Below, one piece after another: positions 52,104 to 59,479 of a stretch of 64,000 nt of DNA. Under the pieces are notes generated by a model. It was not told the origin of the DNA and searched no databases. It was given only the letters and a program-made list of their open reading frames with translations. Positions within the stretch are counted from its first letter, which is position 1. The number at the start of each line of letters is the position of its first letter. This stretch comes from an uncultured Candidatus Saccharibacteria bacterium (GTDB taxonomy: Bacteria > Patescibacteriota > Doudnabacteria > UBA920). Location of the stretch: NCBI GenBank assembly GCA_964474825.1, contig CAYYWQ010000001.1, forward strand, positions 964,048 through 1,028,047, written 5' to 3'. The position numbers and the translations under genes are program-made.

Positions 52104-52733
52104 CTACTTGCGGCCCCTCCTTAGATCAATACGCGCGCTGACGTTAAAGTATACCCGGCTTTCGCTTAGCCCGGTCAGGCTAAACCTATAAGCATACGCC
52201 CCGCCGTAGTCCACGCCCCGCCAACTGCCAAGACCAAGACTGAGCCTAGGCCCAAAGTTGTACTGCTTAGGGAGTGTTGAACTGGCTGGCCGCCAGACAG
52301 ACTCCTCTTCGCCGCCCAGCGAAAGCTTTTTCCACACGCGATACTCCACAATCGCGAAGTGGTAAACGCCCGGCTGGGTTACGAAGGCTGTCGGCTCCAC
52401 ATAGACCGAGAGCCGTTTGGTTAACTGCACGCGGCTGCGGACATCAAGAGCCCAAAACCCGCCCTTTTGGCTCCACTGCTTCTGGGCCATAACTTCAACC
52501 CAATTGTTTTTGTCGCCGCGGCCAACACCAAAAAAAATGTTGGCGTTATTTGGTGTTGCGGTGCGGAAGTTAGGAATTCCCCAAACTACTAAATCATAAC
52601 CCTTCCCAACCTCACCGCGAAAATGGAACGCGTCTCGGTTCTGCCAATCCTGGGCGTGTAGACGTGAACACAAAAACCAGGCCATTGCGATTAAAGCAAT
52701 AACTATCCAAACCAAACTTTTATTGCGTCTCAC
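52104..52733 (-). CDS. Signal-peptide protein with outer-membrane beta-barrel-like alternating pattern, in GC-rich (~57%) island
   Basis: Signal peptide MRRNKSLVWIVIALIAMAWFLCSRLHA. Amphipathic alternating-residue strands and a C-terminal aromatic-rich segment (GGAYAYRFSLTGLSESRVYFNVSARIDL). Composition is atypical for this genome. Confidence 0.45.
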   Translation of the reverse strand: MRRNKSLVWIVIALIAMAWFLCSRLHAQDWQNRDAFHFRGEVGKGYDLVVWGIPNFRTATPNNANIFFGVGRGDKNNWVEVMAQKQWSQKGGFWALDVRSRVQLTKRLSVYVEPTAFVTQPGVYHFAIVEYRVWKKLSLGGEEESVWRPASSTLPKQYNFGPRLSLGLGSWRGVDYGGAYAYRFSLTGLSESRVYFNVSARIDLRRGRK

Positions 52734-52843
52734 TGTTCCTCCTTGCCAGAGCCGCCTCTACTTGCCAGCGGATGGGAGTACAGCTTATAATATTTCTATT
52801 GAGTGGCCAACACCACCACAAGATAATATTAACCACCACAATT

Positions 52844-53590
52844 ATGCACCAAGAAATATTGGAAGAATTAGGACTTTCGCCTAACGAAGCAAAAATTTAC
52901 GAATCGCTTGTTGAAAAGGGAGAGTCTTCTGTTAGCGATGTTGCTACCAGTTCGCAAACCCACCGCAGGAATACTTACGACGCTATGAAGCGCCTTGTAG
53001 ACAAAGGCTTAGTTTTTGAAATTCTATCCAGCACCGGCAACCACTATAACGCGGTGGAGCCGGACAAACTTATGGAACTGGTGGCGGAAAAGGAAACTCG
53101 GCTGCGCCACATTTTACCAGACCTAAAAAAGAAATTTCATAGGCGCCTGGCACCGGAAGAAGCTTACATTTACCGCGGATTGGAAGGACAAAAAAATGTT
53201 TTGCGGGACGTGCTAAGAGTTGGTAAAGACAGCTATTTTATTGGCGCCAAAGGCGGCTGGTATGACCCGCGTTTGGAAACTACCCGCAAAGCTTTTTTTG
53301 CGGAAACCAAAAGAAAAAAAATAAAATTCATTCAGTTGTTTGACCACGAAATAAAACTGGAAAAAGATTTCCCTAAATATTTTGAAGGAAATTTAGAATA
53401 CCGGTTCCTGCCCAAACAATACTCCTCAACTTCTGCCATTCATATTTTTGGCGATTACGTGGTGACCTACACCGGAATGACAATTAAAAAATTGGCGGAC
53501 GACATTGTCTTTTTTGTAATTCGCAGTAGCAACTTAGCCGAAGGCTACCGCAAATGGTTTCGGTACATGTGGGACAAAGCGGAAAAATAA
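52844..53590 (+). CDS. TrmB-family transcriptional regulator (paralog 1)
   Basis: wHTH (ILEELGLSPNEAKIYESLVEKGESSVSDVATSSQTHRRNTYDAMKRLVDKGLV) plus a TrmB C-terminal domain. Start at MHQEIL (ATG at 52844). Confidence 0.7.
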   Translation: MHQEILEELGLSPNEAKIYESLVEKGESSVSDVATSSQTHRRNTYDAMKRLVDKGLVFEILSSTGNHYNAVEPDKLMELVAEKETRLRHILPDLKKKFHRRLAPEEAYIYRGLEGQKNVLRDVLRVGKDSYFIGAKGGWYDPRLETTRKAFFAETKRKKIKFIQLFDHEIKLEKDFPKYFEGNLEYRFLPKQYSSTSAIHIFGDYVVTYTGMTIKKLADDIVFFVIRSSNLAEGYRKWFRYMWDKAEK

Positions 53591-53620
53591 AAATTTTCAT
53601 TTTTACATCTCAAAGAAAAA

Positions 53621-53644
53621 GAGCAGGGCCGCGGGGTCCTGCTC
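53621..53644. terminator. GC-rich hairpin terminator (copy 1 of duplicated pair)
   Basis: GAGCAGGGCC-GCGG-GGTCCTGCTC. Near-identical to 56074..56098. Confidence 0.6.
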
Positions 53645-53682
53645 TTTAGAGTTGTGGGGTAAGGTCCCACGGGCCTGCCTTG

Positions 53683-55071
53683 TTATCGGTCGAAAGGCAC
53701 ACACCGGTTTATGAGTTTTGCAACCCAGGAAATGAGGCCGTGGCCGCCCTGGGGAACCAGAGGAGAAGTGGCGCAGCGGCCGGAAGGCGCGTATCTGACA
53801 ATGACAAACAGGTATGCCAGATTCACCAACCAACGCTGCCAGCGTCGCGGGTGAGTAGTTGAGTTCGCGAGCCCGCAAATGTCCAGGTCGTAGAACAGCG
53901 CGGGGTTTTGGATTAGCCCTTCCGCGACTTCAGGGTTTTCATACCAGCCATCATTTCCCGGAAGAATTCCCCGGTAAACATAGGGACGTAAAACCGTGTT
54001 TGGCCAACGGTCAACAAACCAGAAGAACTGAGCAATGGTCTGCAGCAGTCTGAGAAAAACCTTGTCGGAATGCTGACCCATAACAGTGAGAACCTCGGAA
54101 CGCAATCCGAGTTGGTGGGCGAGGTTGTAGGCAGCCTCTATGTCTTCCATCTTGTTTTGCGTTTTTCCTTCCTCATCCCATTCCTCCCTGCTTGTCCCGT
54201 CGACTCCGAACCCAGCGCACCACAAGCCGCTCCGCTGGACAAGTTCGGCAAAGTTTTCGTGCTGCTCGCTGGCAGCCAGAAATGTGCCCATGCAGGTCAG
54301 ACAGCGTGTCCGTAACTGCACACCGGTCTCTTCCTGTTCCTCGGCCATAGCTTTCATATACTGAAATATAGCCTTGGGTGTCTGAAAGAAGTCCAGGTTG
54401 GAAGCGTAGCACTCCAATTTGCAGATCCCAAAGCTCTGGGCCTTTTTCAAAAGGAACCGCAAGTCATTTCGAAAGGCAGTTAGGTCGCGGAAAGTTTCTT
54501 TTTGCCCCTTGGATGCGGAACACCATTTACATTTGTATATGCAACCCTGCGAGAGCACGAGAGAGAATTCGTGTTCCAAATATTTCCGCAGGCGTTCGTT
54601 ACCCATATGCTCCCAAACCGGTTGGTAAGGGATTTCGTAGGCAGAAGGCAACGCGCCGAATAGTTGCGCGTGGTCATTCTCGCTGGCGACCTGAAGAGCG
54701 GTAGTGCCGAACACAGTACGGAACTGCTCTTTGGAGAAATGAGATGTTACTTGGCCACCCAAGACAACTTTTGCGTGCGGATATCGACGTGAGGTTTGCT
54801 TGGCAAATTTGATCGCCCGCGGGATTCCAGGAGAACCCATGACCGAAGCGCCAATTACATCGGCACCGGAGAACAAGCTAGAGACACGCTCGTCGCCGGG
54901 CTTGTCGATGTTGAAATCGACAATATCCACCTTATGGCCAACGGCCATCAATTGCGCAGCTATAGCCACAACAGAACCGGACATGTAAACCTTTTTCCCA
55001 TAAGGGTACCCCAGATCCACCAGGACAACCTTTTGGGGTTTTACCGAAGACTGCAAAATCGTAAAGCTCAT
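53683..55071 (-). CDS. B12-binding domain / radical SAM domain protein (class B radical SAM), paralog 1
   Basis: N-terminal cobalamin-binding-like domain (VVLVDLGY...KVVLGGQVTSH) and a radical-SAM Cys triad GCIYKCKWC (CxxxCxxC). GC ~55%. SD AAGGAGG lies 7 nt upstream of the ATG. Confidence 0.8.
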   Translation of the reverse strand: MSFTILQSSVKPQKVVLVDLGYPYGKKVYMSGSVVAIAAQLMAVGHKVDIVDFNIDKPGDERVSSLFSGADVIGASVMGSPGIPRAIKFAKQTSRRYPHAKVVLGGQVTSHFSKEQFRTVFGTTALQVASENDHAQLFGALPSAYEIPYQPVWEHMGNERLRKYLEHEFSLVLSQGCIYKCKWCSASKGQKETFRDLTAFRNDLRFLLKKAQSFGICKLECYASNLDFFQTPKAIFQYMKAMAEEQEETGVQLRTRCLTCMGTFLAASEQHENFAELVQRSGLWCAGFGVDGTSREEWDEEGKTQNKMEDIEAAYNLAHQLGLRSEVLTVMGQHSDKVFLRLLQTIAQFFWFVDRWPNTVLRPYVYRGILPGNDGWYENPEVAEGLIQNPALFYDLDICGLANSTTHPRRWQRWLVNLAYLFVIVRYAPSGRCATSPLVPQGGHGLISWVAKLINRCVPFDR

Positions 55072-55148
55072 CTGAAGACCTCCTTAAGGTTTTCATAAGG
55101 CTTCTAGAATTGCCTTATCAAAACCCTTAGATTTTGCAGTCTTGGACT

Positions 55149-55182
55149 AGCTAATTTAGCATATTTTTGCTAGATTGTCAAT
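55149..55182. promoter_or_regulatory. Palindromic operator-like motifs AGCTAATTTAGC and ATTGTCAAT in divergent promoter region
   Basis: Both palindromes recur in the homologous intergenic region at 58521..58559. Confidence 0.45.
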
Positions 55183-55259
55183 CTATATGGTCAATTCGTA
55201 TTCTAAATTTCCTTTAAATAAAGCCTTAATTTGTATATACTAGATTTTGTTCAAAGGTG

Positions 55260-55288
55260 TTGACACAAATGAAAAAATAGGCTATACT
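55260..55288 (+). promoter_or_regulatory. Sigma70 consensus promoter TTGACA-17-TATACT (near-leaderless TrmB paralog 2)
   Basis: The -10 ends only 9 nt before the ATG at 55298. Confidence 0.5.
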
Positions 55289-55297
55289 TATATTGCC

Positions 55298-56068
55298 ATG
55301 ATAAATATTCCAAAAAACCTAAGAGATTCGCTTCTTTCTATGAATTTTTCTGAGAAAGAAGCAGACGTGTATCTTGCACTTTTGGAATTGGGCAAAGGAA
55401 CGGTTTCAGTTATTGCGCGTAAGGCAAATTTAAATAGAACCACTGGTTACCATATTTTGGACTCCCTAAGTGCCAAGGGTTTGGTTAGTGTGTCGGGGAA
55501 AGAACCTCTGCAAGAGTTTGTCGCTGAATCACCAGAAAAAATTACTGAACTGCTGCAAAAAAAATTTATTGAGTACGAAAATTATTTAAAGCAGGCCAAA
55601 GAAACTGTACCCCAATTAAAATCTTTTCATAATATTTCGGACAGGCCCAAGGTTAGATTTTACGAAGGCAAGCAAGGCCTAATAGATGTTTACGAAGACA
55701 CCTTAACCTCTCATGAACCACTGCGCGCTTTTGCTAATTTTGACGACATGCACAAAGCGCTGCCCGATTATTTCCCTTCCTATTATTTGCGTCGCTCAAA
55801 AAAAGGTTTAAATATTCGCGGAGTAGTACCAGTAACACCTCAGGCACTGGAACGACAAAAATTTAACAAGGAAGAAGCCAGGGAAATGACATTTGTGCCG
55901 TATGATAAATATTATTTTTCTCCCGAAATAGACATGTATGACAACAAGCTCATGATTGCTTCGTGGAAAGAAAAACTGGGAATAATAATAGAGAGCAAGG
56001 AAATAGCAGATGCCATGAAAAAAATATTTGAACTGGCATGGCTAGGAGCAAAAGCTTTAAATAAATAA
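55298..56068 (+). CDS. TrmB-family transcriptional regulator (paralog 2)
   Basis: MINIPKNLRDSLLSMNFSEKEADVYLALLELGKGTVSVIARKANLNRTTGYHILDSLSAKGLV. Highly similar to paralog 3 at 58661..59479 (for example VRFYEGKQGL..VYEDTLTSHE, MIASWKEKLGIIIESKEIADAMKKIFELAW). Confidence 0.75.
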   Translation: MINIPKNLRDSLLSMNFSEKEADVYLALLELGKGTVSVIARKANLNRTTGYHILDSLSAKGLVSVSGKEPLQEFVAESPEKITELLQKKFIEYENYLKQAKETVPQLKSFHNISDRPKVRFYEGKQGLIDVYEDTLTSHEPLRAFANFDDMHKALPDYFPSYYLRRSKKGLNIRGVVPVTPQALERQKFNKEEAREMTFVPYDKYYFSPEIDMYDNKLMIASWKEKLGIIIESKEIADAMKKIFELAWLGAKALNK

Positions 56069-56073
56069 AAACA

Positions 56074-56098
56074 GAGCAGGGCCGCGGGGGTCCTGCTC
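56074..56098. terminator. GC-rich hairpin terminator (copy 2 of duplicated pair)
   Basis: GAGCAGGGCC-GCGGG-GGTCCTGCTC. Confidence 0.6.
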
Positions 56099-56122
56099 TT
56101 AAAGTTTGGGGACAAGCCCCAA

Positions 56123-58267
56123 TTACAACAAAGTTTGTGCGAACTTGACCGCTTCGGGCCAAGTTTTAAAGTCAGCGTTAATGCCAAGCTCCGTCCGAAT
56201 AACCGTCCTAATTTGTCCGAGGCGGTCATTTAACAAATGCGGAACGTCGGGCTCGGGAGGGTATTGATCGGCCGCAATTGCGGCCATCTCCCGAAGCTCG
56301 GCCCAGGTAAAGCGTGAGCGGTTGACCCACCACGGAATAGTGGAGGTCACTTTATACGCCCAGTGGGTGCGACACGCCTGCTCGAGAATGTCACGGAGGG
56401 CGTCGACCTTGGTGATGGAAGTAACCCTAGTATTGGAAGTACGCAAGTAATCGAAATCACGATTGACCCGCATAGGCTTCTTGTCTTCCAAGACCCGGAT
56501 GTAGTCTGAGTGAGATCCGTTTATCTCCTCCGGTGACAACCGCATGAGGCGGTAGCGACCAGATTTGATAGTTAGGATAGAGTCGCCGTGTTCCGCAAGG
56601 AAACCAATCCACTTAAAACCAACGTGGAGAGGTTCGCCGGGAATACCCACCATGAGAAAGACATGGGTGTGGATTCCGGCATTCTTGAAATTGGCCAGAA
56701 TGGCCCCGTAGTTCTTGGGCTTGTTCCAACCCTTAAACTCCCGGAGCAGCGTATTTGGGTCGAGCGATTCAAGGCCGAGCTGCACTGAGCGGCAGCCGGC
56801 TGTGTAGAGGTCACGGGCAACGGCCGGATCGGTCAACTTACGATTGGCCGGATTCTCCATTGTCACATAGCACTGCCATGTTGCCTCGTAACCAATACGG
56901 CGAAGTTCGGCGCCGAGTTCCAGTTGGAAATCGTAACGGAAGAGCTCATCGACAATGTCGAACTTGCTCTCACCGGTCGCGGCCATGTCCTCCGCAATTT
57001 TCCGCGGCGACATAAAGCGAGGCGCTCCCAAATGCGTGTCGCTCTGCCCCGAAATGGCGCAGAAACCACAGCGCTTGCGACAATTGGAAGCGGTGTAGAG
57101 CGTAAGAACCGGATCGGGCGACCAAGGCTTTGCCTCGCCGTCGAAATGCGGCGTGGGCAAATCCTTAAACTCGGTTGGCGTAGCAGTTGGGGGATTAACT
57201 GTAACCACACCGCTATTCAGCCAAGCAGTTCCCGATGCCGCGCTAGGGTCAAGTGTTGAAACCAATTCCGTGAGTGGCTGATAGCCCTCCCGATAAACAA
57301 TGGCGTCTACGAAGCCGAAAAATTCGACAAACTCTTGCTCGCTAAACGCCTTAGTCAGTCTGGGCCAAATATTTCCGCCGAGAACCACCAGAGTATTAGG
57401 CAACGCTTCCTTTATTAGCGAAGCGAGGACCAGGCCCGGAATGAGTTGCCGTTCGTCGCTGGTAGAAATCCCATATACGTCCGGCTGAAAGTCGCGTGCG
57501 ACCGGCAGCTCAACGTTCATGAAATATTCGTACCAGAGATTCTTTTCGCGAGACATAAGGGCCTTAAGCGTACCCTCAATGCTGCCGTCTTGCGTCGCGC
57601 CTTGGTAGACGACATTATTGCGTTCATAAAAGAACCTGTCCTCTGTTTTTATGTCGCGCGAGATTTGTTCGAACCTGATGCGAGCGGCATAGTAACCCGC
57701 AAGAGTTGGCTTTGCGTTAGGGCCGCGGATGTTGTTGAGCAACTTCTCAACATCCTCCCCGCCGTGCGCCTTGAGCAAATACTCAAGGCCAATAATATGT
57801 CCGTAGCGCTGGCGTACATTGTGCCCCCGCTGGCGAAGCACTGCCGTAAGCTGCGTGGTCCCGCCCGGATGATGCCAAACGGAATACGCGGGAGCGTTAT
57901 ACAGAATGACTTTCCGCGGCTTCATGAGCGCCACCACGGAGAGCAGAGGTTCGGGCTTGATGGCCGTAATCTTGCGGAACGACATAGTAAGCTGTCTCCT
58001 TGGTGTAAGTGGTGTGCGTACATGAGTGGTGTCCAGGATCTGTCTAAAAACCGACACGGGTTCATAGTAAGTCCTGGATTCCCCGACCGGAACCTCGGCC
58101 GTAGCACGGCAGACGCCGTCCTTGTTGGGTGAGAGGCATACCCACGCGGGCACGTTGCCATTTGAGTTCCATCGGCTGTAATACTTCCAGTCAACGGTTA
58201 CCGCGCTCTTTACCTCAATGTTGAAGAGGTTTAGAACACAAAAGATCGCGAGAATTCTGATTTTCAT
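56123..58267 (-). CDS. B12-binding domain / radical SAM domain protein, paralog 2, with ~94-aa N-terminal signal-peptide-like extension and long C-terminal extension
   Basis: Radical-SAM triad NCRKRCGFC and a B12-binding-like region (TLVVLGGNIW). The N-terminus MSFRKITAIKPEP (ATG at 57985, SD AAGGAG 9-10 nt upstream) is homologous to the paralog 1 start MSFTILQSSVKPQ. The in-frame upstream segment starts MKIRILAIFCVLNLFNIEV (ATG at 58267), which overlaps the stop of the upstream small ORF as ATGA. GC ~53%. Confidence 0.75.
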   Translation of the reverse strand: MKIRILAIFCVLNLFNIEVKSAVTVDWKYYSRWNSNGNVPAWVCLSPNKDGVCRATAEVPVGESRTYYEPVSVFRQILDTTHVRTPLTPRRQLTMSFRKITAIKPEPLLSVVALMKPRKVILYNAPAYSVWHHPGGTTQLTAVLRQRGHNVRQRYGHIIGLEYLLKAHGGEDVEKLLNNIRGPNAKPTLAGYYAARIRFEQISRDIKTEDRFFYERNNVVYQGATQDGSIEGTLKALMSREKNLWYEYFMNVELPVARDFQPDVYGISTSDERQLIPGLVLASLIKEALPNTLVVLGGNIWPRLTKAFSEQEFVEFFGFVDAIVYREGYQPLTELVSTLDPSAASGTAWLNSGVVTVNPPTATPTEFKDLPTPHFDGEAKPWSPDPVLTLYTASNCRKRCGFCAISGQSDTHLGAPRFMSPRKIAEDMAATGESKFDIVDELFRYDFQLELGAELRRIGYEATWQCYVTMENPANRKLTDPAVARDLYTAGCRSVQLGLESLDPNTLLREFKGWNKPKNYGAILANFKNAGIHTHVFLMVGIPGEPLHVGFKWIGFLAEHGDSILTIKSGRYRLMRLSPEEINGSHSDYIRVLEDKKPMRVNRDFDYLRTSNTRVTSITKVDALRDILEQACRTHWAYKVTSTIPWWVNRSRFTWAELREMAAIAADQYPPEPDVPHLLNDRLGQIRTVIRTELGINADFKTWPEAVKFAQTLL

Positions 58268-58476
58268 TTTTTTACCTTTCCTAATCCTGACATGCTCACA
58301 GCAACAACACTTGCCAAGCCAAACGTAATACAAACTACTGCCACAGCAGCTCCCACTTGCTGCACAACGACCTCCGCTGTATGGCCGGTGAGCCACAACA
58401 CTGTTACACCTATTGAGAACAATACCCAACTAACCGACCGCAGATATGAGGCTAGCTTTTGTTCTAACTCCTTCAT
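58264..58476 (-). CDS. Small two-TM membrane protein, translationally coupled to radical SAM paralog 2
   Basis: MKELEQKLASYLRSVSWVLFSIGVTVLWLTGH...VVCITFGLASVVAVSMSGLGKVKK. Strong SD AGGAGG 5 nt upstream of the ATG at 58476. Its stop codon TGA overlaps the downstream ATG. Confidence 0.5.
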   Translation of the reverse strand: MKELEQKLASYLRSVSWVLFSIGVTVLWLTGHTAEVVVQQVGAAVAVVCITFGLASVVAVSMSGLGKVKK

Positions 58477-58520
58477 GTGGTCCTCCTTTAGGACTAAGCA
58501 ATCTAACATAAATTGTTAAT

Positions 58521-58559
58521 ATTGTCAATAGTTATTTACTATACTTAAGCTAATTTAGC
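58521..58559. promoter_or_regulatory. Palindromic operator-like motifs ATTGTCAAT and AGCTAATTTAGC (second copy)
   Basis: Same two palindromes as 55149..55182, in the opposite order relative to the flanking genes. Confidence 0.45.
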
Positions 58560-58607
58560 TTATAATTAAAGCTTAAATAGACATTAAAATATTATTGTGA
58601 ATAAATA

Positions 58608-58636
58608 TTGACACAATCTGTTATACAAGCTATAAT
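58608..58636 (+). promoter_or_regulatory. Sigma70 consensus promoter TTGACA-17-TATAAT for TrmB paralog 3
   Basis: Perfect consensus hexamers with a 17-nt spacer. ATG at 58661. Confidence 0.5.
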
Positions 58637-58660
58637 AAATAGGCCATTAATTACAAACAA

Positions 58661-59479
58661 ATGCCTCAGAATAATTTTGAATTACAAAAAGCCTTGCTTT
58701 CGTTAAATTTTACGGAAAAAGAAGCCAGTGTTTATTTGGCTTTGCTGGAACTGGGTCAGGGTAGCGTGTCGGAAATTGCCCGGAAGGCGAACATTAACAG
58801 AACTTACGGCTACAATATTCTTTCCACGCTGGCGGGGAAAGGCTTGGTAAATATTTCCGGAAAAGAACCTAAACAGGAATACGCGGCTGAGTCTCCGGAT
58901 AAAATTAAAGATTTGCTAAAAGCGGAAATTATTAAAAATCAGGAATTTTTAAAACAGGCCGACGGAGTCATTCCGCAGTTAAAATCTATTCATAGTATTC
59001 GGGGACGCCCACAGGTCCGCTTTTACGAAGGCAAGGAAGGTCTGCAACAAGTTTATGAAGATACATTAACTTCACATGGAACTATATTGGCTTACGCCAG
59101 CGTGGAAGACGTACACCAAACCCTGCCCGGCTATTTTCCAGATTATTATTTTCGCCGCGCGGACAAAGGCATCCCAATACGCGCAATTTTTCCCGATTCC
59201 CCCGAAGCCGAAGAACTTATTAAATCAAACAAAGCTCAAAAAAGAGAAACAGCATTAGTACCGCCGGACAAGTTTTCTTTTTCTCCGGAAATAAATATTT
59301 ACGACAATAAAGTCATGATTGCCTCTTGGCGGGAGAAGTTAGGGGTCGTTATAGAAAGCGGCGAGATTGCGGACGCAATGAAAAAAATATTTGAACTGGC
59401 GTGGGCTCAAGCGAAGAGTTTAGAAAAAAATATTAAAGCAAAAAATACCCCTAGACAACTAGGAAAAAATCTGCTATAA
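58661..59479 (+). CDS. TrmB-family transcriptional regulator (paralog 3)
   Basis: LSLNFTEKEASVYLALLELGQGSVSEIARKANINRTYGYNILSTLAGKGLV plus a TrmB C-terminal domain. Closest to paralog 2. Confidence 0.75.
   Translation: MPQNNFELQKALLSLNFTEKEASVYLALLELGQGSVSEIARKANINRTYGYNILSTLAGKGLVNISGKEPKQEYAAESPDKIKDLLKAEIIKNQEFLKQADGVIPQLKSIHSIRGRPQVRFYEGKEGLQQVYEDTLTSHGTILAYASVEDVHQTLPGYFPDYYFRRADKGIPIRAIFPDSPEAEELIKSNKAQKRETALVPPDKFSFSPEINIYDNKVMIASWREKLGVVIESGEIADAMKKIFELAWAQAKSLEKNIKAKNTPRQLGKNLL

Follow-up and report, generated by a model that had tools for sequence, protein, structure and literature searches.

In viperin (RSAD2), a radical SAM enzyme, an N-terminal helix keeps the protein on the cytosolic side of a membrane, and OxsB has an additional N-terminal domain, of unknown function. 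RRE domains occur as N-terminal fusions with RiPP radical SAM enzymes (PMC7470986, PMC12710340). The gene described here, rSAM2, belongs to a locus within a window of 64,000 nt, which is the whole stretch of DNA analysed and to which all coordinates refer. The locus is likely to be a two-gene operon in which rSAM2 encodes one 714-aa polypeptide with an integral, modular N-terminal extension.

Organisation of the locus

The operon genes, a small ORF and rSAM2, lie on the minus strand, and TrmB3, encoding a TrmB-like wHTH regulator (58661-59479), is divergent on the plus strand, with its own 12/12 promoter at 58608-58636. Directly upstream of the small ORF there is a sigma-70-like promoter (58500-58528, minus strand) that matches 10 of 12 positions, with TTGACA at 58528-58523, a spacing of 17 nt and a TG-extended TAGATT at 58505-58500. 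The small ORF and rSAM2 would form an operon served by this promoter, which faces the divergent regulator gene. Over 3030 bp that take in the junction of the two genes and the whole of rSAM2, the window and the independent Logan assembly L001 are 100% identical, so that a local stop or frameshift error, a concern raised in the initial annotation, is unlikely.

The small ORF (58264-58476, minus strand) runs from the ATG at 58476 to the TGA at 58266-58264 and encodes an orphan protein of 70 aa (MKELEQKL...GKVKK). Two transmembrane helices are predicted from its hydropathy, with hydrophobic stretches at approximately residues 14-32 and 36-63 and K/R at both ends, and its codon-position GC of 0.55/0.39/0.44 is like that of host genes. 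The Shine-Dalgarno AGGAGG (58482-58487, minus strand), read directly, stands 5 nt before the ATG, as expected from the strong ribosome-binding site first described for this ORF. Since the promoter overlaps the alternative ATG at 58509, the 70-aa start is the sensible choice. The TGA overlaps the ATG of rSAM2 in an exact ATGA at 58267-58264 (minus strand), also read directly and in agreement with the earlier reading, and ribosomes terminating at this TGA could therefore re-initiate at the rSAM2 ATG, which suggests translational coupling of the small ORF to rSAM2.

The small ORF is not conserved, either across proteins or across related loci. Among 5.8 billion proteins its only match is itself, and no equivalent is present upstream of 18 other long-form loci, where the gaps between the TrmB and radical SAM genes measure 90-270 bp; the ORFs found in the same place in L057 and L059 are related neither to the small ORF nor to each other. 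Kinship with the TrmB-rSAM intergenic ORFs of L057 (122 aa), L059 (121 aa) and L003 (126 aa) was considered and rejected. These observations are in line with the view that the ORF is not a gene, in which case its Shine-Dalgarno and the overlap would be fortuitous, like the ORF itself, and the 226-nt stretch would simply act as 5' leader of rSAM2 mRNA. This is a serious possibility, if one somewhat short of an even chance, but it has to account for a complete AGGAGG that is ideally spaced and directly follows a promoter-like site, for two distinct hydrophobic helices with basic residues at their ends, for the host-like codon-position GC and for the exact ATGA junction. Moreover, the ORF is also predicted by the NCBI and Logan gene callers, and a search of the 226-nt leader for a riboswitch or other RNA element gave no Rfam match at E up to 1. 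Because the small ORF has no homologue, its reality has to be judged from these signals by themselves, and it is plausibly a real, lineage-specific gene.

The rSAM2 core

rSAM2 (56123-58267, minus strand) belongs to the radical SAM superfamily, scoring 44 bits with PF04055, whose cut-off is 29.5, and its core appears to be of the cobalamin type and class-B-like. Residues 119-357 (57197-57913, minus strand) are modelled as a Rossmann-like (B12-binding-type) domain with a helical insert, for which PF02310 scores 19.9 bits, below its cut-off of 32.1. The radical SAM barrel comprises residues 385-571 (56555-57115, minus strand) and contains the CxxxCxxC motif (C396/C400/C403, at 57059-57082), which is invariant in 118 sequences. 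The AF2 model matches CysS, TokK, OxsB and TsrM in Foldseek with E-values of 2e-16 to 4e-14, at TM-scores of only 0.41-0.47, and a PDB profile search retrieves TokK at 3.6e-7. These four enzymes have the same fold order as the modelled rSAM2 core, namely a Rossmann-like domain, the CxxxCxxC barrel and a helical C-terminal domain. With 51.2 bits against a cut-off of 281.85 for the RiPP C-methyltransferase family TIGR03975 (E 7e-14) and 55.2 bits against a cut-off of 600 for the PhpK family TIGR04479, rSAM2 falls outside both families.

A probable integral N-terminal module

The extension begins MKIRILAIF... and continues into the core without a stop through all 714 aa, as had been noted for its first 94 residues. 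Its first part, residues 1-14 (58226-58267, minus strand), consists of a K/R n-region and an uncharged hydrophobic helix (ILAIFCVLNLFNI) and is Sec-signal-like. The second, residues 15-97 (57977-58225, minus strand), is predicted to be an all-beta sandwich, and the third, residues 98-117 (57917-57976, minus strand), combines the low-confidence linker KITAIKPEP with the hydrophobic helix PLLSVVALM, followed by K/R. The AF2 model of full-length rSAM2 has a pLDDT of 94, with a helix at residues 2-12, values above 90 throughout the sandwich and below 50 in the linker at 102-108; when modelled alone, the module reaches 86.8. No structural neighbour of the sandwich was found in the PDB, where Z did not exceed 4.2. 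The general order would be a basic n-region, an uncharged helix of 13-16 residues, a beta-sandwich of ~80 residues, a flexible linker and a hydrophobic helix of ~9 residues with R/K, and the medians over the module sequences are a charge of +2 for the n-region, 15.5 residues for the first hydrophobic stretch and 9 for the second, which is followed by R/K.

Of the readings initially offered for this segment, the comparisons favour that of a genuine N-terminal domain. The extension is found at 99% query coverage in 49 of about 118 homologues, and in 18 genomic loci it runs into the core uninterrupted by a stop and without an independent start. The dN/dS values of 0.10 (window against L002), 0.19 (L002 against L006) and 0.31 (window against L003) indicate that it is under purifying selection. 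The idea of a precursor or substrate peptide fused to the enzyme by a lost stop codon finds no support in this combination of fusion, selection and confident folding, and the extension is, as part of the same overall explanation, probably an integral, selected and independently folding domain.

A third reading held that two nested products are translated, with a 620-aa enzyme made from Met95, devoid of the helix and the sandwich, beside the 714-aa protein. The internal Shine-Dalgarno-like motif on which it was based does exist, as AAGGAG at 58001-57996, 10 nt before the in-frame ATG of Met95 at 57985-57983 (57983-58001, minus strand), and short forms without the module occur naturally in other lineages. 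However, the Met95 column of 45 aligned homologues contains Met only in the query, with Ile in 21 and Val in 18 (39 of the 45 between them), so that this start is lineage-specific and not conserved. The SD-like bases are Arg-Arg codons that stand in for the Lys-Pro of the family, Met95 falls in the final strand predicted for the sandwich, and the natural short forms begin ~20 residues further downstream, at 'RRKVxLNYPP'. In 27 genes of the window, which have 224 internal in-frame ATGs, a 5-mer SD-like motif precedes 3 of these, and such pairs do arise by chance. Nor is the MSFRK start homologous to the start of paralog 1 (the window's rSAM1), as had been proposed: in the alignment, the N-terminus of paralog 1 falls on residues 115-151 of paralog 2 (rSAM2) and not on Met95, and the two proteins share 30% identity over 56 aa only (E 0.004). 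Nested translation is very unlikely, and Met95 with its motif would be a chance by-product of the Arg-Arg-...-Met codons of this lineage.

Distribution of the module

A profile of the module was searched against 1.84 billion (1.84e9) representative proteins and returned 25 matches, of which about 20 are real; without exception they start from residue 1. The weak matches P0140-P0143 were rejected as low-complexity or repeat noise, being multi-stretch alignments in large repeat proteins. Every full-length match is a radical SAM enzyme, and at least four architectures are represented: the rSAM2 type, the rSAM1 type (P0127, 47% identical to the rSAM1 of the window, E 8e-157), the SPASM type (P0128, P0133 and P0139) and another B12-binding radical SAM enzyme (P0131). 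The module is almost entirely restricted to Patescibacteria, where it would have been shuffled onto these unrelated architectures, and it may therefore supply something generic to the enzymes. Short forms that lack it are found in other Patescibacteria, in all actinomycetes and in a Woesearchaeote, and these homologues would work without it.

The initial annotation had considered that the 94-aa segment might be a separate ORF elsewhere. In the 18 related loci it is fused, and the single exception is a marine lineage (L055/L056, two assemblies) in which an ORF of its own, of 99 aa, encodes the module and is ATGA-coupled to an enzyme of the rSAM1 type; covalent attachment of the module to the enzyme is therefore not obligatory. 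None of 38 module sequences has a Pfam match. Neither Pfam nor NCBIfam has a model for the domain, which is apparently undescribed, and a full-text literature search found no description of it or of Patescibacterial radical SAM enzymes with signal peptides.

Gene neighbourhood

All three TrmB copies of the window contain the PF01978 wHTH (51.5-55.5 bits, cut-off 25.6), and they score far below the cut-offs of the sugar-sensing TrmB equivalogs. A TrmB-like regulator gene is divergent upstream of the enzyme gene in the window and in L003, L021, L011, L018, L022, L023, L039, L057, L059 and L060/61. The other neighbours (EamA, GT4, a recombinase, SPase I, IMPase) vary by locus and are mutually unrelated. 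No conserved protease, transporter, precursor or RRE-containing partner was found beside the enzyme, the regulator alone being recurrent, and module enzyme and regulator often form a mobile-looking cassette. Upstream of the actinomycete homologues, the only recurrent genes are one for a GCS2 ligase and an unusual tRNA-like one, which are uninformative with regard to the substrate. An anti-phage defence cassette was also considered and rejected: PADLOC gave no match for either radical SAM enzyme, for the small ORF or for a 209-aa protein, and only generic wHTH similarity for the regulators.

Possible roles of the module

The locus had been likened to the classic RiPP arrangement, with a secreted, Cys-containing peptide encoded just ahead of the enzyme. 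This comparison finds no support: the Cys pair is confined to one subclade (10 of 45 members), the segment is predicted to be a beta-sandwich, and precursor, protease and transporter genes are lacking; a separate short precursor ORF by the maturase is absent from the window and the 18 loci, with L055/L056 as the exception. A broader form of this proposal takes the extension as the enzyme's own substrate or product, a RiPP-like precursor fused to its maturase or, in some lineages, encoded just before it, modified in cis, cleaved at the linker and exported by way of its signal-like N-terminus. The signal-like N-terminus with small -3/-1 residues would agree with it, as would a conserved N-terminal part followed by a hypervariable middle with insertions and, in that subclade, the Cys pair, the split version in two assemblies, the 'solo' enzyme genes without conserved partners and the distant TIGR03975 match. 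Nevertheless, precursor peptides are normally disordered, whereas the module is a globular sandwich predicted with high confidence, one and the same module accompanies four mechanistically different enzyme types, and no conserved protease or exporter is close by. Furthermore, neither the short forms nor the actinomycete homologues, all without the module, have an obvious upstream peptide, and the TIGR03975 score of 51 is far under the cut-off of 282. This proposal is thus highly improbable, although the split L055/L056 version leaves a small door open for it.

By inspection and simple statistics, the start of the module has the n/h/c pattern, with small -3/-1 residues (VKS|A here; VRA|E and SYS|L in relatives), and looks like a cleavable Sec signal. 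Such a signal is ill-suited to a cytoplasmic Fe-S/cobalamin enzyme, as the second hydrophobic stretch (median 9) is too short to recross the membrane. Two other signals were rejected on inspection: a lipoprotein signal, as the Cys of the helix is preceded by L/F/V/I and not by G/A/S and is missing in distant members, and a type IV prepilin signal, as position -1 is not Gly and position +5 is not Glu. The Cys pair, which brackets a variable loop, resembles an extracytoplasmic disulfide.

An integral domain of this kind most likely serves to target the enzyme to the cytoplasmic membrane or to anchor it there, by means of its two short hydrophobic helices with basic residues beside them, with the sandwich possibly acting as a partner- or substrate-recognition surface in a position like that of the RRE in RiPP radical SAM enzymes. 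It is improbable, if somewhat less so than the RiPP-like precursor, that the module is instead the business end of a self-contained system, in one of two versions that share this low probability. Either the helix would export the sandwich, giving type-I-like membrane enzymes with an extracytoplasmic domain coupled to cytoplasmic radical chemistry, or the sandwich or linker would be modified in cis by the fused radical SAM core and then released, as a protein-scale analogue of a RiPP whose precursor and maturase form a single gene that moves horizontally with its own TrmB-like regulator. Both versions are compatible with the Sec-like n/h/c organisation, the paired Cys, the split ATGA-coupled form and the lack of a conserved partner.

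Since the RiPP lead fails, no further effort need go into a spurious precursor peptide. It leaves a compact domain that is found N-terminally on radical SAM enzymes only, in at least four unrelated architectures, and a module common to different chemistries should mark a trait shared in these reduced episymbionts, be it location, activation or substrate class. That Fe-S/cobalamin enzymes should start with a Sec-like signal is a tangible paradox, and radical SAM chemistry would be organised in a new way if the module turned out to act as substrate or as external sensor.

Comparison with known systems

The RRE (PqqD-like) domain is likewise an N-terminal accessory domain of ~100 residues that is found on several unrelated radical SAM types, SPASM and B12, and the distribution of the module over SPASM and B12 types is that expected of a shared recognition module. 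However, the RRE is a winged helix-turn-helix, made of three helices and a three-stranded sheet, whereas an all-beta fold behind a hydrophobic N-terminal helix is predicted for the module, which, having no Pfam match in the 38 sequences either, does not qualify as an RRE; nor is a precursor peptide gene conserved near the module enzymes, in contrast to RRE systems. Proteusin-type RiPP systems, which have precursors with long NHLP/Nif11 leaders and B12 radical SAM C-methyltransferases such as PoyC, also combine a domain-like N-terminal region of ~90 aa with B12-type radical SAM chemistry, but theirs is encoded by a separate precursor gene, with a C-terminal hypervariable core and protease and transport genes, while the module is fused in frame in 18 loci, lacks neighbours of this sort and is predicted to adopt a sandwich fold. 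The helix of viperin is amphipathic, longer and not followed by a beta-sandwich, unlike the uniformly hydrophobic, Sec-signal-like helix of the module, and the two are not related in sequence. Viperin nonetheless offers a precedent for the anchoring role that we infer for the module.

Architecture of rSAM2 and its homologues

The radical SAM gene rSAM2 encodes 714 aa on the minus strand (58267 to 56123). Its product is a radical SAM enzyme (PF04055, 44 bits) with a CxxxCxxC motif formed by C396, C400 and C403, and its B12-binding match is sub-threshold. The 5.8 billion proteins searched include 135 relatives, about 49 of them long forms (660-750 aa, 99% query coverage) and about 68 short ones (575-630 aa), the latter starting at 'RRKVxLNYPP', some 20 residues past Met95. 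All long forms share an N-terminal extension with a basic start, a FLAILCVLSLFNIEV-like hydrophobic stretch, a middle part that is variable and rich in beta structure (with a G-E-S turn and, in many cases, a G-W), and an end of the form P-x-x-P-K-P-x-V-x-V-S-L-R-K-I-x-A-x-K-P-E-P-M-L...R-R-R, followed by the core. Of 18 genomic loci in Patescibacterial MAGs, none has a stop codon between extension and core; the gene specifies one 714-aa product, an architecture kept across relatives.

The loci L002 and L006 have downstream flanks that are 96% identical and share 97-100% amino acid identity over residues 1-150, but just 47-63% over rSAM residues ~300-600. Between close relatives the core is therefore mosaic or recombined, with the N-terminal module kept. 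In the nearest relative contig, from a Doudnabacteria MAG (L007, 1-2022), which carries orthologues of the window's TrmB-like regulators TrmB2 and TrmB1 (500 and 359 bits), the rSAM2 orthologue is split over several frames, either as a pseudogene or through long-read indel errors, and the cargo between the two regulators differs, consisting of an ORF of 189 aa and small genes that resemble toxin-antitoxin genes. Directly upstream of actinomycete short-form homologues lies a tRNA-like gene of unusual length, 87-95 nt (L024 543-637, L025 5869-5956, L032 5912-5998, L029 5593-5684, L041 5670-5759), for which ARAGORN anticodon and strand calls are inconsistent and the Rfam tRNA model scores over its gathering score in L025 and L029. 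In Kitasatospora and Actinomadura, a GCS2-family ligase is found farther upstream.

The extension is an integral domain

The AlphaFold2 model of rSAM2, built on a 118-sequence alignment (pLDDT 94, pTM 0.83), predicts a folded N-terminal module: a helix at residues 2-12 (pLDDT ~75-83) and an all-beta domain of eight to nine strands at residues 15-97 (pLDDT above 90), followed by a linker at 102-108 (pLDDT below 50), a short helix at 107-114 and the core from residue 119. Codon comparison of the extension yields dN/dS values of 0.10 (window and L002), 0.19 (L002 and L006) and 0.31 (window and L003), indicating that it is read in this frame and under purifying selection.

The initial annotation had also considered nested products, with the core translated from Met95 (57985-57983, minus strand), 10 nt upstream of which lies an AAGGAG. 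These nucleotides are Arg-Arg codons, at which relatives carry Lys-Pro. A 5-mer SD-like motif precedes 3 of the 224 internal in-frame ATGs in 27 window genes, a base rate that makes one such pair unremarkable. Moreover, among 45 aligned sequences Met occurs at this column in the query only (Ile in 21, Val in 18), and the residue is predicted to fall within the last strand of the sandwich, so that internal initiation here is very improbable. The claimed homology to the start of rSAM1, the window's other radical SAM enzyme (53683-55071, minus strand), did not hold either: the two proteins show hardly any relationship (E 0.004 over 56 aa), and it is residues 115-151 of rSAM2 that align with the rSAM1 start. 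The 94-aa segment is not a separate entity.

A module shared by several radical SAM families

A HMMER search with the module profile against 1.84 billion cluster representatives matched 25 proteins, about 20 of them convincingly, and all matches begin at residue 1. Full-length matches include rSAM2-type proteins, two proteins (P0127, P0134) with cores that share 47% identity with rSAM1 (E 8e-157), three radical SAM-SPASM proteins (P0128, P0133, P0139), a third B12-binding radical SAM (P0131, with the fragment P0132) and another radical SAM (P0138). This distribution marks the module as a shuffled domain, exclusive to radical SAM enzymes; within the window it is present in rSAM2 and absent in rSAM1.

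The single case found of the module as a separate ORF comes from one marine lineage in two assemblies (L055 769-1344, a TARA contig from 3 samples, and L056), where a 99-aa ORF with a signal-like helix and sandwich is joined by an ATGA stop/start overlap to a downstream rSAM1-type core opening with the hydrophobic linker MILAGILPLA. This split locus, the variable middle of the extension and the occurrence of the enzymes as solo genes would suit a RiPP-like substrate modified in cis (a precursor fused to its enzyme by a lost stop had been among the readings proposed previously). Nevertheless, the predicted fold is confidently globular, the module sits on four enzyme types and processing genes are absent, with no recurrent protease, transporter or precursor gene near module-bearing enzymes among the loci compared; we consider a cis-substrate highly unlikely.

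The small ORF and the operon

Upstream of rSAM2, on the same strand, a sigma-70-like promoter (TTGACA 58528-58523, 17 nt, TG-extended TAGATT 58505-58500) and an AGGAGG (58487-58482), 5 nt before the ATG, precede a 70-aa ORF (ATG 58476, TGA 58266-58264) with hydrophobic stretches at ~14-32 and ~36-63 and basic ends. Its TGA overlaps the rSAM2 ATG (58267-58265). An 81-aa version starting at 58509 was discarded: that start falls within the extended -10 element, which makes the 70-aa start the sensible one. An independent Logan assembly matches the window at 100% over 3030 bp, junction included; these features, as initially described, are therefore real and no assembly error.

The small ORF is an orphan heading one operon with rSAM2. 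Its only match among 5.8 billion proteins is the ORF itself, none of the 18 other long-form genes has it upstream, and in L057, L059 and L003 the TrmB gene and the enzyme are separated by ORFs of 121-126 aa that are related neither to it nor to one another. Its GC3 (0.44) is like that of host genes and unlike that of rSAM2 (0.62). That it is not a gene at all is a substantial possibility, somewhat short of an even chance. No Rfam element was found in the leader, and PADLOC matched nothing in the cassette. Ribosomes ending the small ORF could re-initiate at the overlapping rSAM2 ATG.

Regulators, neighbours and mobility

A TrmB-like regulator gene (58661-59479, plus strand; PF01978, 55.5 bits) with a perfect 12/12 promoter (58608-58636, plus strand) diverges from the operon, and its product probably governs both promoters. 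Divergent upstream TrmB-like regulators also occur in L003, L021, L011, L018, L022, L023, L039, L057 (beside a SPASM enzyme), L059 (B12) and L060/61 (rSAM1). Other upstream neighbours are mutually unrelated: EamA transporters, a GT4 glycosyltransferase, a serine recombinase, signal peptidase I and inositol monophosphatase. A signal peptidase I gene (L017 4843-5496; Peptidase_S26, E 7e-46) divergently adjoins a module-bearing rSAM; this was seen once and may be coincidental.

Window positions 52104-59479 hold three cassettes in a row, in each of which a plus-strand TrmB-like regulator (52772-53590, 55247-56068 and the gene at 58661) diverges from a GC-rich cargo on the minus strand, namely a 209-aa protein in the first cassette, rSAM1 in the second and the small ORF with rSAM2 in the third. 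The cargo has a GC content of 0.52-0.54, the regulators 0.38-0.42 and the window as a whole 0.42. Flanking the block are rsmI/YebC/RuvC/TyrRS and a RibD_C-like gene; in the syntenic relative L003 these flanks enclose other cargo (one rSAM and ORFs of 126 and 205 aa), which marks the block as a variable island. The 209-aa protein (52104-52733, minus strand) has a signal-like N-terminus (MRRNKSLVWIVIALIAMAWFLCSRLHA, then QDW) that resembles the rSAM module n-region and a body rich in beta structure and aromatics; it has no Pfam, NCBIfam or PADLOC match and no homologue among the loci compared. TrmB1 and rSAM1 converge, and the gap separating them holds a weak, sub-threshold Rfam match to the 3' part of the Atu_C9 sRNA (53567-53647, plus strand; 22.7 bits, E 0.0095), which is probably a mere terminator-like hairpin.

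In most Patescibacterial loci (L013, L016, L038, L003, L008 and others), the GC content of the rSAM gene exceeds that of its flanks by 0.07-0.13 (0.504 against 0.371 in L003), and in L015 a serine recombinase lies immediately upstream of it. These features suggest that the enzyme gene is horizontally mobile.

Nature of the module

The N-terminus of the module resembles a cleavable Sec signal, with a median n-region charge of +2, a first hydrophobic stretch of median length 15.5 and small -3/-1 residues. A second stretch (median 9) is followed by R/K; both segments are short, with basic residues on either side, and a Cys pair surrounds the variable insertion loop in 10 of 45 members. The second stretch is too short for a membrane span, thus a secreted sandwich on a cytoplasmic Fe-S enzyme would be topologically awkward, and a membrane reading is not secure. 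The module probably sets the enzyme at the membrane and/or recognises a partner.

The initial observation is confirmed, while its interpretation is partly supported, solely as a genuine N-terminal domain: the extension is integral, fused to the core in 18 loci and separate only in L055/L056, and the small ORF is not conserved, which goes against the RiPP and nested readings. What stays of interest is an apparently undescribed N-terminal module, restricted to radical SAM enzymes, whose signal-like start is paradoxical.
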